Origin: a virus
Taxonomy: Duplodnaviria > Heunggongvirae > Uroviricota > Caudoviricetes
DNA length: 51,601 bases
Virus record (IMG/VR): IMGVR_UViG_2854395284_000002
Span: 91,638 to 143,238 of that record
Reading direction: 5' to 3' (one strand)
How positions within the stretch are numbered: the first letter of the stretch is position 1; each line of letters opens with the position of its first letter. Shown one piece after another: positions 4,412 to 30,582 of the stretch. Made by a program: the position numbers and the translations under genes. The notes beneath the pieces are model-generated. The model searched no databases, was not told the origin of the DNA, and saw only the letters and a list, made by a program, of their open reading frames with translations.

Positions 4412-4617
4412 TCTTGTATCCTCCGATCATCAATTTCTTGTTTCTCTTTTTCGTGGATCTGTTCAAGCTCTTCATAAGTTACAGTTCGAGAATTATAACC
4501 TATACTTCTATAATATTTGGTATAATGATTTGCATTCTCTCTATCACAGCTTGTACATGTTTTTATAAATCCAGTATGCTTTTCTGTTGCAATCACGCAG
4601 ACAACATTATCTTCCAT
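4393..4617 (-). CDS. hypothetical protein (74 aa)
   Basis: GAGG RBS. Confidence 0.65.
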   Translation of the reverse strand: MEDNVVCVIATEKHTGFIKTCTSCDRENANHYTKYYRSIGYNSRTVTYEELEQIHEKEKQEIDDRRIQEWLLAI

Positions 4618-4675: not shown

Positions 4676-4963
4676 CTAAATAAATTCTTCAACATATCCC
4701 ATCGCTAATACATCTTGCATATAATTATAAAAATTTCTAGTTACAATTATTTTTTCAGGCGAATAAATAATATGTCTTTCATCGTATAATCTGTTTAGAA
4801 TTTCAATTTCTTCTTCATCCATTTTTGAATAGCTCCATCCTTGACATGCATTTTTTATTGAATAGTCTATATACGGATATAATCTAAGTTCCTTTTGTGA
4901 AATTGTTCTATCCAAGAATGCCACCGCTTTTTCTTGAATGCTATCTGTTAGTATTCCTCTCAT
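4676..4963 (-). CDS. hypothetical protein (95 aa)
   Basis: AGAGG RBS; bounded by palindromes. Confidence 0.7.
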   Translation of the reverse strand: MRGILTDSIQEKAVAFLDRTISQKELRLYPYIDYSIKNACQGWSYSKMDEEEIEILNRLYDERHIIYSPEKIIVTRNFYNYMQDVLAMGYVEEFI

Positions 4964-20621: not shown

Positions 20622-20903
20622 CTATTTCCGCAATGGGACAATATCTAATGTATATCCCATTGGTACAAGCAATTTAATAAGTGTGTCAATCTGCGGCACT
20701 GCTTTCATACTTTCCATTCTGGCGATCGCTGACTGTTTAACTCCGCTTGCCTTTGCAAGTTGGGTCTGAGAGAATCCGCTGGACTCTCTCATCTCCTTTA
20801 CTTTCTCAATCAATGCGACTTCAAAATTGATTTCTGCCTTGTCTTCTTCGGAAAAATATTCCGGATCATTGAACATATCTTCGAAATTTTTATGCTCTTT
20901 CAT
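20622..20903 (-). CDS. HigA-type HTH antitoxin
   Basis: XRE HTH (SQTQLAKASGVKQSAIARME) downstream of a RelE-like toxin. Confidence 0.8.
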   Translation of the reverse strand: MKEHKNFEDMFNDPEYFSEEDKAEINFEVALIEKVKEMRESSGFSQTQLAKASGVKQSAIARMESMKAVPQIDTLIKLLVPMGYTLDIVPLRK

Positions 20904-20905
20904 AG

Positions 20906-21268
20906 CTATTTTCCCTCTCTTTCTAACCAGTCTCGCATGTTTGCCTTTGCCTTTTCTATTTCTCTTTTCGGTGCTTTCTGCGACTTTTTCATGTAATGAC
21001 TTAGTAACACAAACTTATTCTCTTTCCAGTAGAAGAAGAAAATTCGATTCTTTAATGGTCGCAGTTCCCAAACATCTCCTTCGATCGGTCGAACTACAGG
21101 ATATCCGATTCTTGTGCCGTTTCGCTTAAGCAACAAAATATATTCTGCAATCTTGTTCATGTTGATTCTTGCGTTTTTATCTATCTTTGCCTTTTCCGCA
21201 AGCTCTGCGAAATATTCTCCAATTTCGCAATGATCGTTGACGTCCTTATAAAATTCTACTGTATACAT
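20906..21268 (-). CDS. RelE/HigB-type (Gp49-like) toxin
   Basis: G.RIGYP.VRPIEGDVWELRP..NRIFFF......FVLL.HYMKKSQKAP..EI..A. Confidence 0.8.
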   Translation of the reverse strand: MYTVEFYKDVNDHCEIGEYFAELAEKAKIDKNARINMNKIAEYILLLKRNGTRIGYPVVRPIEGDVWELRPLKNRIFFFYWKENKFVLLSHYMKKSQKAPKREIEKAKANMRDWLEREGK

Positions 21269-21760: not shown

Positions 21761-21873
21761 AGTAGTTCCTCCTTATTTTGAGTTTGCCTTGTGAAATTGA
21801 AAATTTTTGCATCAAAAAAAGACATTCTTGCTTTGCATTGCAAAAACGCCTTTTTCGGTTCTGTTATTTTGTT

Positions 21874-22110
21874 TTACAAATAGAATGTAACTTCTACTTG
21901 TGTAGGAATCCCGAATGCAATTACATTACATACACGGGTTTCCATTGTGTTATCTTCCAGATATTTCCGTTGTTGGATTCTGGAATCATACATTCCTGTC
22001 AGTTTCCGCAAAGTATCTTCTACGTTTTCCGGTACGAACTGTTCCGCAATTTCTCTGTGACGCCGTGAAAATTTTGTCATCGGAATACAAGTAATATCAT
22101 TTCTTTTCAT
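21874..22110 (-). CDS. hypothetical protein (78 aa)
   Basis: GGAGG RBS. Confidence 0.65.
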   Translation of the reverse strand: MKRNDITCIPMTKFSRRHREIAEQFVPENVEDTLRKLTGMYDSRIQQRKYLEDNTMETRVCNVIAFGIPTQVEVTFYL

Positions 22111-22339
22111 TTTCTCTTCCTCCTAAGATCATTCTTGATGCTTTCAACGCATTGTTTGCCTTGAAATTTCCAGTTTTGATAAACACGGATAATAAAGCCG
22201 GTGCTAATTCTTCTACTAATTCTGTAGTATATAACATATTACAGATAGCATTGAAAATACCCATGGTTGCCTTGTCATTTTCTAAATGATTGCTTTTAAT
22301 TGTAACCATCATTGCGTTTTCTGCCTGGATTGCGTTCAT
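22097..22339 (-). CDS. hypothetical protein (80 aa)
   Basis: GGAGG RBS. Confidence 0.65.
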   Translation of the reverse strand: MNAIQAENAMMVTIKSNHLENDKATMGIFNAICNMLYTTELVEELAPALLSVFIKTGNFKANNALKASRMILGGRENEKK

Positions 22340-22378
22340 GTTATTCTACCTCCTGTTTTACCTTTTTACATTCTCTGC

Positions 22379-22942
22379 TTAATAGTCATAACCACAAGAT
22401 AATGAAATCATTGATGCATTACCAGAAAATTCCCAATGAGCATAAGTTGTGTGTTCTTTCCATTCCGGTTCTGACCGTCCAAAATCTCGTGCTTCCATTC
22501 CAGGAATTAATCGCTGCCCAGATCCACCGCCTTTCTTTCTTGTAACCGCGCTTTTCATCATTTTATCGAAATTTTCCGGTTTGCATTCTCTGATTGGGTG
22601 AACTGATTTCGCTTTACTTTCTTTATGAGCTTTCCAGATGCTGCACGCAAGTTTCCGTTCGAACTCATTCTTGCTATAGGTGGCGATTATATCTCGTTCC
22701 CATTCGTTATAAACCGAATTGAAAGCCCACACATACAAATAAACGCGGTTTCCTTTATAGTTTGGGAACGAGTCACACACGTACCGAACGCCGTCATATT
22801 GAGTATATACGGCATTTACTGGGAAAAGTTTTCCCGCCATTCTGAATTGTTTTCTTGCAATGAGATAACGCGTATCTGAGCATTTTTTAAACACTTCTGA
22901 AATTTTACACATGGTTTTCCCTCTTTTCTTTCTTATTTTCAT
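22379..22942 (-). CDS. hypothetical basic protein (about 177 aa)
   Basis: ORF; likely start MCKIS. Confidence 0.65.
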   Translation of the reverse strand: MKIRKKRGKTMCKISEVFKKCSDTRYLIARKQFRMAGKLFPVNAVYTQYDGVRYVCDSFPNYKGNRVYLYVWAFNSVYNEWERDIIATYSKNEFERKLACSIWKAHKESKAKSVHPIRECKPENFDKMMKSAVTRKKGGGSGQRLIPGMEARDFGRSEPEWKEHTTYAHWEFSGNASMISLSCGYDY

Positions 22943-23034
22943 TGCAAAGCTGGAAATTTAAGTACGCAAAAAAGACGTTGCACACACAACGCCCATTTTC
23001 GGGTATCAAAAAGCACTTAAAAAAATAAGTGTTG

Positions 23035-23070
23035 AAAATCGCCCGTAACTTTTGACGGTCACGGGCGATT
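23035..23070 (-). terminator. probable intrinsic terminator
   Basis: AATCGCCCGT / ACGGGCGATT stem. Confidence 0.6.
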
Positions 23071-23087
23071 ATATTGCGATTGCGTGG

Positions 23088-24134
23088 TTATTTCTGTTTC
23101 TTCTGTTCAAAAGTCAGATTGCCCTTAATTTCGAACTTTCCACCCTGTTTTTTCAGGACGATTGCTTTTACAAGAACTCGTTCAAATTTCTTGTAGTTCA
23201 CTGTCTTGAACAGGAATTTTCCGTTTCCGTCCTGTTCAATGTTGAAACCAGAAACAAGGGTCGCCAGGTTATTTAATTCCGTTGGGGTCATTCTGATGGA
23301 ACGAGACGCAAGTACCTTGTTCCCGTCCGACTTTGTGACAGAAAACCGCGAAAACAGGTTTTCCATCTCAGACCGGAATGACAGATATAATTTTTTTGTA
23401 TCTTCCGTTGTCTCACCACCAGTGCGTCCCAATTCATGGCGGTAAAGCTGGGCTGACTGTAAAGGTTTTTCAAAAACCTTTTTCCAGTCCGAAACGTTTC
23501 CGGAAGCAAGGGAACAAAACAGTTCAAAATGTAACAACTGTTTTCCCGTGCCTTTCACCTGGGCAACGTATACCGGAGAAATGATACCGGAAATTTCGTT
23601 ACACGCGTTGCGGAGTGCGTCACGGCGGTTGACAAGATCCATTCTTACGTCCTCCGATGTGAGAAGAAACGCGCGGAGCTTTGAGTATTCTGTGCTTTCC
23701 TCCTGATCCAATTCGAATACATCACGCTTGTTTTCGAGCTCTTTTGCGCGCGCTTCAGACTTTTCAACCGTTTTCAGAAAACTTTCTAACTTGTTTTCTG
23801 AAGCTGTTTTTTCCTGTTCCATACAAGCAGCGAAAACGGCGTTTTTGTACAGAACTGGAGTGAGAACTACACCGACAAGTGACAGTTCGCTAAAGTCGGT
23901 ATAAGACCGTGAGATAATCCCGTCCGAAACGAGATCGAAAACAACGCGGTTATAGACAAGCGCGGTTTCATCTACTACAAGACGAGTTCCGGAAACAAGG
24001 TTGATAGAAGCAAGTTCGTTGCGGGTTACTTTCAGAATGTTATACATCATGGTTTTTTCCTCCTTAAATGCCGTGTACTTGACACGGCGAAACAAAATTG
24101 ATAAGATATGTATTGAAACAATTTCGGCGCTCAT
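23088..24134 (-). CDS. hypothetical protein, first gene of the leftward operon (probable start MMYNIL at about 24049)
   Basis: Long ORF; GGAGG RBS precedes MMYNIL; more GC-rich than the array. Confidence 0.7.
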   Translation of the reverse strand: MSAEIVSIHILSILFRRVKYTAFKEEKTMMYNILKVTRNELASINLVSGTRLVVDETALVYNRVVFDLVSDGIISRSYTDFSELSLVGVVLTPVLYKNAVFAACMEQEKTASENKLESFLKTVEKSEARAKELENKRDVFELDQEESTEYSKLRAFLLTSEDVRMDLVNRRDALRNACNEISGIISPVYVAQVKGTGKQLLHFELFCSLASGNVSDWKKVFEKPLQSAQLYRHELGRTGGETTEDTKKLYLSFRSEMENLFSRFSVTKSDGNKVLASRSIRMTPTELNNLATLVSGFNIEQDGNGKFLFKTVNYKKFERVLVKAIVLKKQGGKFEIKGNLTFEQKKQK

Positions 24135-24716
24135 AAACTCACGTTTTCGTCAATATTTCAAGCGGGCGACTTGAGCGCCACGACTTACGGGAAACGTCCC
24201 GCGACGTATTTTAATGGAACACGTAAACCGAAAAGGGAGCGACTTGAGCGCCACCACTTTTTTTATTGCAATTTGTAGGGAGCGACTTGAGCGCCACCAC
24301 TACGAAAAGGTGTTTCGTTCGAATGTAGTCTGTATATCCCGTGTACAGGTGGGAAAACGCATATCATCACACGCGCCCACTTTGTTTACCACTCAAGTGC
24401 TGCTGATTTTAAGCAGATATTTGAAGACGGTTACTCGTGTTACCCGTTCGCGTACATCTCACGACGTTCGCGCGCTCAACTGGGAATAGTCCTATTCGGT
24501 ATGGACTTTGTACCGGGCAAATTAGTTTGCCGAACTCATGCAAGAATAGAATGCAGATGGATTTTCCGCCATCCGCGGAGCGGTTACACGTCCGCGTAAT
24601 AGATACTGAGACTAAGGTTGACAGTTACAATCCCGGGCGGTGTCCGGTATACAGAAGAAGAAACACCGCGAACGAAACGACCGTTCGCGTATCAATTAAG
24701 GTCATCCCTCATTGAC
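24135..24716 (-). ncRNA. candidate structured RNA or long 5' leader (about 580 nt)
   Basis: GC-richer non-coding segment with at least 9 consecutive hairpins directly downstream of a consensus promoter. Confidence 0.45.
24166..24301. repeat. three direct repeats, core GCGACTTGAGCGCCAC
   Basis: 24166-24181 (16 nt); 24235-24258 and 24278-24301 are identical 24-mers. Confidence 0.9.
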
Positions 24717-24722
24717 AAGTCA

Positions 24723-24751
24723 AGTATAGCATGTAGGCACTCATTTTTCAA
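24723..24751 (-). promoter_or_regulatory. sigma-A promoter of the leftward transcript
   Basis: TTGAAA-17-TATACT with an extended TG; 10-bp IR TGTAGGCACT (24732-24741) / AGTGCCTACA (24784-24793) overlaps the spacer. Confidence 0.7.
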
Positions 24752-24958
24752 GTATTTTTTAGTAAAATAATCACGGTTTTATAAGTGCCTACATATATAT
24801 TTTTATGCATATTGCTAGTTAGTTAAATGTAATTGTACAATATAAACAACAAACATAGTGCAAATAGTAATGTTATGCAGCATATTGACGAACAGTAATA
24901 TTGCACAATAGATGCAATAGTTTATTGTGCAAAGTGCTGAAAATAAAATAATTTATTA

Positions 24959-25177
24959 TTGTATATGCAAAAGGAGTTATTGTGTATGAGTACAGAAGCA
25001 GAAAAGAAAGCTGTTAGAAAGTATCAGGCAAAATGCAAAGAAGTAAGAATAAAGTACACTGAAAAAGAAATATCAGAATACAATAGATTGCAAGAATATT
25101 TATCAGAAAATAATATCAAAGTGACCGAATATTTGAAAAAATTAATAAAAGCAGATCTGGACAAAAAGGGGTATTGA
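24959..25177 (+). CDS. small ribbon-helix-helix-like DNA-binding protein
   Basis: KAVRKYQAK...V.IKY.......L.EYL......V.EYLKKLI..DL; divergent from the array. Confidence 0.6.
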   Translation: MYMQKELLCMSTEAEKKAVRKYQAKCKEVRIKYTEKEISEYNRLQEYLSENNIKVTEYLKKLIKADLDKKGY

Positions 25178-28651: not shown

Positions 28652-28688
28652 AGTAGTATGTGGAGTAGTAAATTCTCCGTTTACTACT
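28652..28688. promoter_or_regulatory. integrase arm-type binding sites (Tn916 DR2-like)
   Basis: AGTAGTATGT at 28652, AGTAGTAAATT at 28664-28674, inverted TTTACTACT at 28680-28688. Confidence 0.7.
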
Positions 28689-29881
28689 TATGCAATCAGC
28701 CGCTTCATTTCTGTTATCGACGTTTCGGAAGTCGTATGCGCGTAATAGTTCAGTGTCATGTTGATGTTAGAATGTCCCATGATGTACTGTAATGCCTTTG
28801 GGTTCATTCCTGCATTTGCTAACGTGGTGCAGAATGTGTGGCGTAAGGTGTGCGGTGTCATTACCTTTGGCAATGCTACCTTTTGCGTTTTGTTGTATTT
28901 CCTTACAAGCCCCCGGAACATACTTTCATAGTTGACCGCCACTTTTGGCAAGCCGTTCCGGTTAAGGAACAGAAACTTTGTGTAGCCCTCCAAAATAACA
29001 GGCTGTGCATATTTCCGTTTGTTCAGCACCCGCTGAAATGCTTCCAACACTTTTTCACTCATAGGAATAACCCGGTTGCCGCTTTTCGTCTTAGGTGTTT
29101 CCACATAGTAGCCCACGTCTGCAATCTTCAAAAGTTGGTGGTCTACATGGATAAGCTGTTTGTCTAAGTCAATGTCAGCTTCCGTCAATCCGCAGAGTTC
29201 CGAAATGCGAAGCCCTGTCCCTAACAGTATGATAATCTCGTCGTAGTATTTCTGATAGACTTTATCATGCTGCACAAAGGACAAGAAAGCCGCTTCCTGC
29301 GTAGGGGATAGAGGTTCCTTTGGTTCTGTATCATCTTCAAGGACTGTGTTCAACTGGAAGTCAAACGGATTTTTACGAATACAATCGTCCTGTATGGCTG
29401 TGTAAAAGGCAGCCTTTAAGGAACGCTTGTGGTTGTTGATAGTTTTGAAGCCGTAACCTTTTTCTTTCATGCGTAACGCCCATTCCTTTGCGTCGGAGAG
29501 CTTCACATTTTCAATCCGGCAGGCTCCAAGTTTATCCTCCTGCAAAATCCGCATGAGCTGTTTTCGCCCCTGCTTTGTACCATGCCGCACATTTGCCCGG
29601 TGGCGTATCTGCTTTGCGTAGAGTTGGCAGACAGTCATTTTCTTTCCGATATGGTCGATACCGTCGTCAAGGTCTTTTTGGATTTCTTTCTCTTTTTCCC
29701 TCAACGCTATATCGTCGCGCTTTCCTGCCGGGGTTTTGTCCGTAGGCACTAACTTCCAAGAATAAACAAACTGCGGTTTCCCAAAGGTGTCTATATATTT
29801 GTAGGCATATCTCCCGTCTTTTCTCTGGCTCTCTCCGGTGCGGAGAATACGATTTTTATTATCCCGTCTTTTTTCCGACAT
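28688..29881 (-). CDS. int: Tn916-family tyrosine integrase
   Basis: MSEKRRDNKNRILRTGESQRKDGRY N-terminus; GLRISE, TPHTLRHTF, LQYIMGH, Y motifs. Confidence 0.95.
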   Translation of the reverse strand: MSEKRRDNKNRILRTGESQRKDGRYAYKYIDTFGKPQFVYSWKLVPTDKTPAGKRDDIALREKEKEIQKDLDDGIDHIGKKMTVCQLYAKQIRHRANVRHGTKQGRKQLMRILQEDKLGACRIENVKLSDAKEWALRMKEKGYGFKTINNHKRSLKAAFYTAIQDDCIRKNPFDFQLNTVLEDDTEPKEPLSPTQEAAFLSFVQHDKVYQKYYDEIIILLGTGLRISELCGLTEADIDLDKQLIHVDHQLLKIADVGYYVETPKTKSGNRVIPMSEKVLEAFQRVLNKRKYAQPVILEGYTKFLFLNRNGLPKVAVNYESMFRGLVRKYNKTQKVALPKVMTPHTLRHTFCTTLANAGMNPKALQYIMGHSNINMTLNYYAHTTSETSITEMKRLIA

Positions 29882-29960
29882 CGTTATGCTCCTTTCCATA
29901 ATGGAAAGAGCCTTGATATGCTTGACTACATTGTACCACATTCAAGGCTCGATTTCACTA

Positions 29961-30164: not shown

Positions 30165-30582
30165 TTTGTCGTCCCCCTTTCTTAATGGGTCAAAAGTTAA
30201 TGTGTAACATAGGCTTTAATCGGACGGCTATTAGCGTAACCTCATGGGACTTGCACCCCTCCGGCGGTCTGCCGAAGCCCTACCCATTGCCTGCGACGCT
30301 TCTAACGCTCGGACTATGGCTGTAAGGAAGTATCATTATATATTCTGTGCGTTATCGCCCGCAGGGTGCTATCCCTGCTTTACGGTGTGGTATTTCTCGC
30401 TCGCTTTTCGGTTAAGAAAAAGGTCATGGCGTACCCACCGCATGGCTCGGCACAAAAGGAACGTATCCGATTTGCCTTATACTGCGTCGCCGTTCTATTG
30501 CGCCGCTTTCTTTGTCAAAGAGCAGAGAGCTGTTCTGCGATATGGAACGGAAAAGGGAGAAGCGTTCCAATACCGCGTTGGT

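Follow-up and report, generated by a model that had tools for sequence, protein, structure and literature searches.

A large structured leader RNA heads an early operon of human-gut jumbo phages and may be half of an antitermination module

The minus-strand early operon of an uncultivated phage opens with an untranslated, structured leader RNA of 666 nt (24051..24716, minus strand), recognized by its fold energy, its covariation and the lack of a conserved ORF. It lies in a stretch of 51,601 nt (hereafter the window) that is part of a 143-kb IMG/VR virus record (IMGVR_UViG_2854395284_000002, positions 91,638 to 143,238). Established here are the fold of the RNA and the strand from which it is read, its modular build, the pairing of one hairpin with one gene family, and the presence of terminators behind the first gene. 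Regarding function, the reading that we rate highest, with a probability of about 0.4, is that this cis-acting, modular 5' leader would be the RNA half of a two-part (RNA and protein) processive antitermination module; it is preferred because the layout matches that of lambda pL-nutL-N-tL1 and, in spirit, that of conAn. The question addressed is the control of early transcription in large phages of Gram-positive gut bacteria: with one promoter, one RNA, a candidate protein, a repeated loop and a triple terminator, this control is directly testable by reporter.

Promoter and extent of the leader

The promoter named in the first-pass annotation (TTGAAA-17-TATACT with an extended TG, 24751-24723, minus strand) was found, and its spacing is kept by the alternative promoter modules of relatives: across three non-homologous modules, the -35, TG and -10 elements stand in constant register with the first hairpin of the leader. 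An operator-like inverted repeat (arms 24731-24744 and 24781-24794) is located at the promoter. The divergent 63-aa gene (24986..25177, plus strand), which has a 64-65-aa counterpart in distant relatives, is likely the repressor of this promoter module; from its sequence we take it to encode a ribbon-helix-helix protein, and it has no Pfam match. The promoter and repressor module, of which there are at least three types, is exchanged independently of the leader cassette.

ATG 24050 is the first start codon with support and has AAGGAGG (24065-24059) ahead of it. The stretch previously described as free of supported ORFs is indeed so over 666 nt: no conserved ORF is present across the 11 aligned leaders, in which ORF ends vary between haplotypes. 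In type A, the leader enters the ribosome-binding site of the first gene directly, with no terminator between them, and is therefore a 5' leader and not a gene in its own right. The same annotation had called the segment GC-richer than its flanks, which is true with respect to the upstream DNA (0.47-0.49 versus 0.27-0.31) but not with respect to the next gene, which is similar (0.42-0.49).

Selection for RNA structure

The same leader is carried by eight IMG/VR contigs and four metagenome contigs with 66-99% identity. RNAalifold analysis of an 11-sequence alignment (A2) gives a consensus of approximately 30 helices and 157 predicted pairs, 49 of which show compensatory double changes; over the 11 sequences, consensus pairs are 98% canonical, with hardly any disrupted. 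Column shuffles give an alignment energy of -59.8 ± 5.0, compared to -156.3 for the real alignment (z = -19, calculated with our own script), and the 49 covarying pairs compare to a mean of 10.8 and a maximum of 18 in column shuffles. If the 3' partners are slid by 1-3 columns, pairing falls from 98% to 31-45% and covarying pairs number only 4-10. The single-sequence fold (-211.5 kcal/mol) is also more stable than its shuffled controls (z = -4.2, 20 shuffles). What had been noticed by eye as a hairpin-dense RNA is a large structured RNA backed by covariation among 11 relatives.

Most of the stems that had been listed lie in the consensus fold and most of those covary: in the consensus are CGCGAACG/CGTTCGCG, GATGG/CCATC, GGCAAA/TTTGCC, CGGTA/TACCG, CTGCT/AGCAG, GTGGG/CCCAC, CTGTA/TACAG and GGGA/TCCC. 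GCGGA/TCCGC is absent from it, and the place of GAATAG/CTATTC is probably taken by the pseudoknot described below.

When the structure is mirrored onto the opposite strand, canonical pairing drops from 98.4% to 88.7%, because 181 cells are G:U. Covariation, shuffles, strand bias, the absence of a conserved ORF and the kept promoter register together confirm that the minus-strand transcript is under selection for structure, and the observation of a leader RNA holds. The same data bear on whether the region might act as DNA, for example as iterons, an origin, a single-strand initiation site or a centromere beside a DnaA-box region. The three direct repeats described below would suit such an element, as would three TTATCCACA boxes just upstream of the sister-group promoter. 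We nevertheless consider it extremely unlikely: compensatory changes keep the stems while the sequence drifts, the loops rather than the stems are conserved, the 181 G:U cells make pairing 98% canonical on one strand versus 89% on the other, and the promoter geometry is kept across three unrelated promoter modules.

Searches for known families

A search of the whole window against Rfam 15 at the gathering threshold gave no match on the leader, and a search of 23900-25000 at E ≤ 10 gave only chance matches to eukaryotic miRNAs and snoRNAs, far below gathering. No Rfam match was found in the sister loci, and the repeat region searched alone (171 nt, E ≤ 10) did not match the Rfam CRISPR-DR models. 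Since no Rfam 15 family matches, the leader RNA is, as judged by these model searches, in no catalogued RNA family and is not ROOL, GOLLD, OLE, EAR (presumably among the Rfam 15 models) or a CRISPR repeat; the ROOL/OLE identity that had been floated for it is not borne out.

Comparison of the leader with GenBank phages and PLSDB plasmids using blastn returned nothing, as did tblastn searches of phages with the first gene and with the HTH-DUF6551 gene. Pattern scans of representative genomes produced only one chance match, in an Amaricoccus MAG. Seven candidate loci were set aside as chance matches: L028, and six (L011, L014, L015, L021, L022 and L024) in which an 18-mer match falls within coding sequence.

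ARAGORN finds no tRNA in the window. The sole Rfam match of the window is a pemK RNA (30242-30339, minus strand) scoring 56 bits against a gathering threshold of 34.8. It adjoins the Tn916-type integrase (28688-29941) of an integrative element inserted beside the phage replication region.

Anatomy of the 5' module and middle domain

All coordinates in this section are on the minus strand. The 5' module (24633..24716) was delimited using alignment A7, nhmmer and covariance model R1, and the latter detects one copy per genome. It comprises hairpin P1 (24716-24691), hairpin P2 (24689-24667), which contains the motif UACGCGAACGG (24691-24681), and hairpin P3 (24647-24633), which has a CACCG loop. 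In alignment A7, P3 is preceded by a pyrimidine tract ending in CUGUA, the feature that enters a comparison with lambda boxA/boxB. The second copy of UACGCGAACGG (24454-24444) is at the start of hairpin P10; the repeat CCGTTCGCGTA reported earlier at 24444 and 24681 is present at both positions.

Three interpretations of this region were rejected. P2 is flagged in the window as an attenuator terminator, but this is not conserved: L037 has GUGAUCAAAAGAC after P2 and no U tract. RNAalifold predicts long-range pairing between the pyrimidine tract after P2 and the Shine-Dalgarno sequence; this pairing was discarded because its covariation stems only from a non-homologous stretch in L029 and because the tract is absent in L037. 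A 10-bp complement between the P2 3' strand and 24321-24312 (repeat I1) is uncompensated in other haplotypes.

Helices P4 to P6 (24537..24631) have four covarying pairs each. Here a long-range helix (24590-24584/24543-24537) encloses a hairpin (24576-24553) that keeps G.AAAA in its 6-8-nt loop on a covarying stem and may resemble boxB, which in lambda-type nut sites is a hairpin of 5 bp with a GNRA-like pentaloop, preceded by boxA. Next is the RNA core (24488..24531), made up of hairpins P7 (24531-24516) and P8 (24515-24497) and invariant in type A and a sister group. The P8 loop segment AGUCC (24507-24503) complements GGACU (24492-24488), five bases downstream, forming a candidate pseudoknot. 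Both of its strands are invariant, hence no covariation signal is possible; it is favoured because the diverged sister group is unable to form the local hairpin that would be its alternative. Helix P9, which has a GNRA-type loop (GUGA or GCGA), and the start of P10 come next (24427..24472); the UACGCGAACGG motif located here is shared with the sister group. Of the remaining helices, P11 to P14 (24330..24425), P13 (24380-24349) has a UGAUGR loop, which type C leaders and the sister group also contain.

Repeated hairpins with a UCAAGU loop

The 3' domain contains three repeated hairpins of approximately 28 nt each (24160..24303, minus strand): U1 (24303-24275), U2 (approximately 24261-24233) and U3 (24186-24160). 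They have the form GGCGC-UCAA-G(U)CGCC, with three matches compared to zero expected, and hold the direct repeats GTGGCGCTCAAGTCGC (24166, 24239 and 24282, minus strand), which had been missed in the first reading. Stem covariation (GGCG to GGCA, GACA or AACG) leaves the loop unchanged, and no such units are found elsewhere in the approximately 200-kb genomes. Two small hairpins are interspersed (24224-24204 and 24202-24187, minus strand). The segment UGAGCGCCG (24125..24142, minus strand) complements the 5' half of the repeat units and is predicted to pair with U2, closing the 3' domain, in a helix that shows no covariation.

A last hairpin, GCCGUGU-CAAGU-ACACGGC (24088-24070, minus strand), has 7 bp and a CAAGU loop and is located beside the ribosome-binding site, 5 nt upstream of the Shine-Dalgarno sequence. 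U1-U3 and this hairpin all carry the UCAAGU loop: TCAAGT occurs four times in the 666-nt leader, compared to approximately 0.2 expected from the window-wide rate, with five more occurrences on the same strand in the other 51 kb. ACUUGAG (24398-24392) as a partner of the CUCAAGU loops was rejected because it is found in a single haplotype only.

The repeat units invite comparison with RNA anti-CRISPRs, which in this case would mimic type I-C CRISPR repeats and soak up Cas proteins. U3 consists of GUCG, a hairpin and CGCUUGAAAU (some relatives end in CCCCAUUGAAAU), and published I-C repeats consist of GTCGC, a hairpin and GTGGATTGAAAT (PMC7264901); UUGAAAUAU is invariant in the alignment, and an RNA of this kind, RacrIC1, is known and sits with acrIC5 (PMC10651486). 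We judge this explanation very unlikely. The sequence shared with the published repeats is GTCG...TTGAAAT, with an overall identity of only approximately 55%; the stem is shorter and the loop is different. The 3' handle is absent from U1 and U2, no Rfam CRISPR-DR model matches, and the covariation-supported fold pairs part of the supposed handle.

The first gene and its relatives

ORF1, the first gene of the operon (320 aa, 23088..24050, minus strand), is the proposed source of a protein that would bind the UCAAGU hairpins. It belongs to no Pfam or PHROG family, searches using a PDB sequence profile and the ESM Atlas returned nothing, and these sequence searches and the fold searches below returned no match to N, Q, ConAn1, NusG-like or other characterised factors. 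A first AlphaFold model based on close homologues only was too poor to use (pLDDT 55); a model including distant homologues (pLDDT 79) has a long coiled-coil hairpin and a helical bundle. In Foldseek searches of PDB, AFDB clusters and BFVD, this model matched only generic coiled coils and uncharacterised proteins of approximately 250-270 aa, three of them viral. The best matches (AFDB C9L7N4, BFVD A0A8S5RCX8 and BFVD A0A8S5PJX1) are approximately 270 aa in length, and two are from phage metagenomes. Because these equal the first genes of the other cassettes in size, the first genes of all cassettes may share one fold despite their unalignable sequences; profile-profile comparison of the first-gene families of different cassettes was not significant (E = 0.12-0.25).

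An exhaustive phmmer search identified first-gene homologues with 24-33% identity. Three of the four contexts, those of homologues with 29-33% identity (L084, L085 and L086), have the same order: a divergent 64-65-aa gene, a gap of approximately 470-510 nt for promoter and leader, and the homologue. The hairpin before the ribosome-binding site in these three relatives has different stems and a CAAGUA, AAGUAU or UCAAU loop, and in all four lineages this hairpin is 0-12 nt from the Shine-Dalgarno sequence. When the stems vary but the loop persists, with the same protein family downstream, the pattern is that expected of a cognate protein-RNA site. On this comparative sequence evidence, the product of the first gene, which the first reading had not considered, is probably the partner of the RNA. 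At the fourth homologue (L087, 24% identity), the contig ends upstream, and behind the gene there is just one hairpin, which lacks a U tract.

A type III toxin-antitoxin system, in which RNA repeats precede a toxin gene, was considered for the units and the first gene and rejected: the units are not arranged in tandem, and the protein neither resembles ToxN nor matches Pfam.

Terminators after the first gene

Downstream of the first gene are three intrinsic terminators in tandem, each with a U tract (22967..23068, minus strand): T1 (23068-23035), T2 (23031-23008) and T3 (22994-22967). Also overlooked in the first reading, they are conserved in relatives, with one compensatory change in T2. Tandem terminators (two or three) stand directly after the first gene in distant relatives as well: two follow the homologue in L085 and L086, the contigs that reach far enough. 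The 45-kb contig L086 further shares the downstream operon down to the HTH-DUF6551 gene. Other cassette types have one weaker terminator-like hairpin after the first gene; a scan of the type B locus found no sense-strand terminator-like hairpin in this position.

The first-pass annotation had suggested an antitermination leader that lets polymerase read through many downstream terminators. Antitermination remains the best fit to the architecture, with tandem terminators directly after the first gene; the "many terminators" are not enriched operon-wide, as 11 terminator-like sites on both strands compare to 7.6 ± 2.5 in shuffles. No recognisable N or Q protein is encoded among the scanned operon genes of the window.

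The terminators could also simply end a self-contained unit of leader and first gene. The UCAAGU hairpins would then serve the first gene alone, as operators that autoregulate its translation or stabilise its mRNA; T1-T3 would end the transcript, and later genes would be expressed from other promoters or by basal leakage. The position of the hairpin, 0-12 nt from the Shine-Dalgarno sequence in every one of the four lineages, is in keeping with this, as are the strength of the tandem terminators after the gene and the presence of promoter-like sites further down (for example, 21323-21296). Such a unit is possible, if on balance unlikely, in both its regulatory and its transcriptional aspects: it leaves unexplained both a richly structured leader of 666 to approximately 1100 nt and a 5' module that is kept across cassettes with unrelated first genes. 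In addition, there is no promoter-like site between T1-T3 and the next gene (ATG 22912), and the later genes are codirectional and tightly packed.

Further down the early operon is a toxin-antitoxin pair (minus strand), consisting of a Gp49/HigB-like toxin gene (20906-21268) and then an HTH antidote-like gene (20622-20903). A strong terminator-like hairpin (20591-20558) is located just after this pair.

Distribution and cassette exchange

The leader RNA is found in uncultivated human-gut phages of 200-216 kb, with a single copy per genome; the complete relatives in this size range are 97-100% complete according to CheckV. Replacement of the window segment 24634/24905-21790 (leader body and first four genes) by other cassettes is seen between flanks that are 92-96% identical. 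The cassette edges are sharp (window 21790-24905 versus L033, L037, L043 and L044). Leaders of types B (approximately 1.1 kb) and C (approximately 0.88 kb) match the window in the 5' module only, the sole part of the leader common to other leader types, and are strongly structured themselves (z = -18 and -9.5, respectively). The 5' module is thus joined to at least three non-homologous leader bodies. In the other cassettes, a different hairpin beside the ribosome-binding site is paired with a different first gene. The joint exchange of leader body and first gene points to a possible specificity pair shaped by diversifying selection, comparable to lambdoid immunity regions.

The sister group (L012, L018 and L020) has a leader of approximately 900 nt, and the parts that it has in common with the window are only the P8/pseudoknot core, the GNRA hairpin and GAACGG motifs. 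In this group, the sequence immediately before the early promoter contains three TTATCCACA DnaA boxes (L018:8735-8790, minus strand), which suggests a physical linkage of promoter and replication origin in this phage family.

The type B leader of L033 has a second, perfect consensus promoter (TTGACA-17-TATAAT, 4574-4602) right after the 5' module and an ORF of approximately 35 aa with a strong ribosome-binding site (4753-4860). The type C leader contains an 89-nt tRNA-like gene (L043:6074-6162 and L037:5302-5390) that ARAGORN identifies as tRNA-Stop(tta), of the ochre-suppressor type. This gene has a long variable arm and a canonical T-loop and scores below the Rfam tRNA gathering threshold. 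A degenerate copy is present in the sister group (L018:7795-7890, minus strand), and the variable arm is absent in L020. The tRNA-like gene may serve in stop-codon recoding or as an RNase P processing signal in these jumbo phages.

This modularity bears on whether the leader is instead a large, ornate RNA that acts in trans, or the precursor of a set of such RNAs, with only the promoter in common with the first gene. It might then be an RNP scaffold, a host-takeover or anti-defence decoy, or a processed RNA immunity factor such as P4 CI or P1 c4. RNA modules are reshuffled between leader types, and the tRNA-like gene at the same position in sister cassettes indicates that RNA genes do live at the leader position. 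The zone is swappable and immunity-like, with alternative modules of repressor and promoter beside it; strong structure is seen in each of the three leader bodies; and the size class is that of ROOL and GOLLD, which are phage-associated (10.1101/2024.12.08.627333). A trans-acting role is nonetheless doubtful. Type A has no terminator or obvious processing site before the first gene, the RNA matches neither ROOL, GOLLD nor any other Rfam model, and no conserved target complementarity was found: the sole repeat/antirepeat pair is that of U2 and UGAGCGCCG, which resembles a normal closing helix.

A proposed read-through module

In the antitermination reading that we prefer, transcription would start at the repressor-controlled promoter and the nascent leader would fold into its approximately 30 helices. 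The UCAAGU-loop hairpins (U1-U3 and that at the ribosome-binding site) would bind the protein encoded by the first gene, and the resulting RNA-protein complex would let transcription pass T1-T3 and proceed through the early genes (approximately 23 kb). This complex may be assisted by the conserved RNA domains (5' and core), acting on RNA polymerase. With a hairpin 5 nt upstream of the Shine-Dalgarno sequence, the protein could also limit its own translation. A simple protein-loading model makes approximately 450 nt of the leader (P2 to P14, including the pseudoknot-like core) superfluous, which counts against read-through, as does the possibility raised above that T1-T3 merely close the unit formed by leader and first gene. 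Also weighing against it are the lack of operon-wide terminator enrichment, the weaker or absent terminator-like hairpin in the other cassette types and the dissimilarity of the first-gene protein to known factors.

Comparison with known systems

In lambda pL-nutL-N-tL1, a repressor-controlled early promoter is followed by a leader RNA site, the first gene, one or more terminators and the remaining early operon. The window has the same order of parts and also has conserved-loop hairpins; as with N and nut, RNA site and protein are exchanged together between related phages. The scale is different: lambda nut is approximately 40 nt with two sites, whereas the leader is 666 nt with approximately 30 helices and one site per genome. 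Unlike N, the first-gene protein has 320 aa, is mostly long coiled coil, lacks an arginine-rich motif and shows no similarity to N.

HK022 put and Bacillus EAR are, like the leader, structured nascent RNAs just downstream of a promoter, and P2 and P3 of the 5' module (approximately 60 nt) are near put in size. Put (approximately 70 nt) and EAR (approximately 120 nt) both act without a dedicated protein, unlike the proposed leader module. ROOL, GOLLD and OLE resemble the leader in their size class (approximately 600-900 nt), many covarying helices and association with Firmicutes phages, and in the tRNA-like neighbour seen here in sister cassettes; in contrast to them, the leader is fused to an mRNA and has no Rfam match. 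Racr RNAs (PMC10651486) are likewise repeat-like hairpin units downstream of a phage promoter, but only one unit of the leader has ends that resemble I-C repeats, and the units are embedded in a far larger fold.

Two systems of conjugative plasmids provide further comparisons. The zipper-type attenuator of pLS20 is a 456-nt structured leader ahead of the antitermination module of a 32-kb operon (PMC13401043). The leader described here is similarly long and structured; unlike the attenuator, it has no long imperfect stem with a terminator/antiterminator alternative that we could find, and L037 lacks a U tract after P2. RNA and protein antitermination at the head of operons of more than 30 kb is documented in Gram-positive mobile elements (PMC8191782): conAn consists of a large RNA element (260-600 nt) and a small, poorly conserved protein, is cis-acting and is divergent between elements, with 13-33% identity even among proven members (PMC8191782). 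Like conAn of pLS20-type plasmids, to which it is likened by layout, the proposed module pairs a large RNA with a protein at the head of a very long mobile-element operon. In conAn the gene for the ConAn1 protein precedes the conAn2 RNA, which has a GC-rich box and a hairpin SL1, whereas here the RNA comes first, and in a phage rather than a conjugative plasmid.

Long structured leaders and RNA-based antitermination are already known, and the leader RNA is in no described family. A more far-reaching reading, which we hold to be improbable, is that these leaders are a new class of modular ornate RNAs of approximately 650-1100 nt in human-gut jumbo phages, whose bodies would join the coiled-coil protein of the cassette in an RNP that reprograms the host. 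Such an RNP, equally conjectural, would not be a simple leader; it would act either on transcription elongation complexes or, in trans, as a particle for immunity or anti-defence. Similarly speculative is the inclusion of the suppressor-tRNA-like unit of sister cassettes among the interchangeable bodies. To our knowledge, only a few natural RNAs exceed 600 nt and have helices backed by dozens of compensatory changes, and every one of them to date has led to new biology. If the antitermination reading is true, it adds a phage example to RNA and protein antitermination systems so far drawn from conjugative plasmids, with a leader that is larger and more modular than put, EAR and nut and that accompanies a protein of unknown fold.
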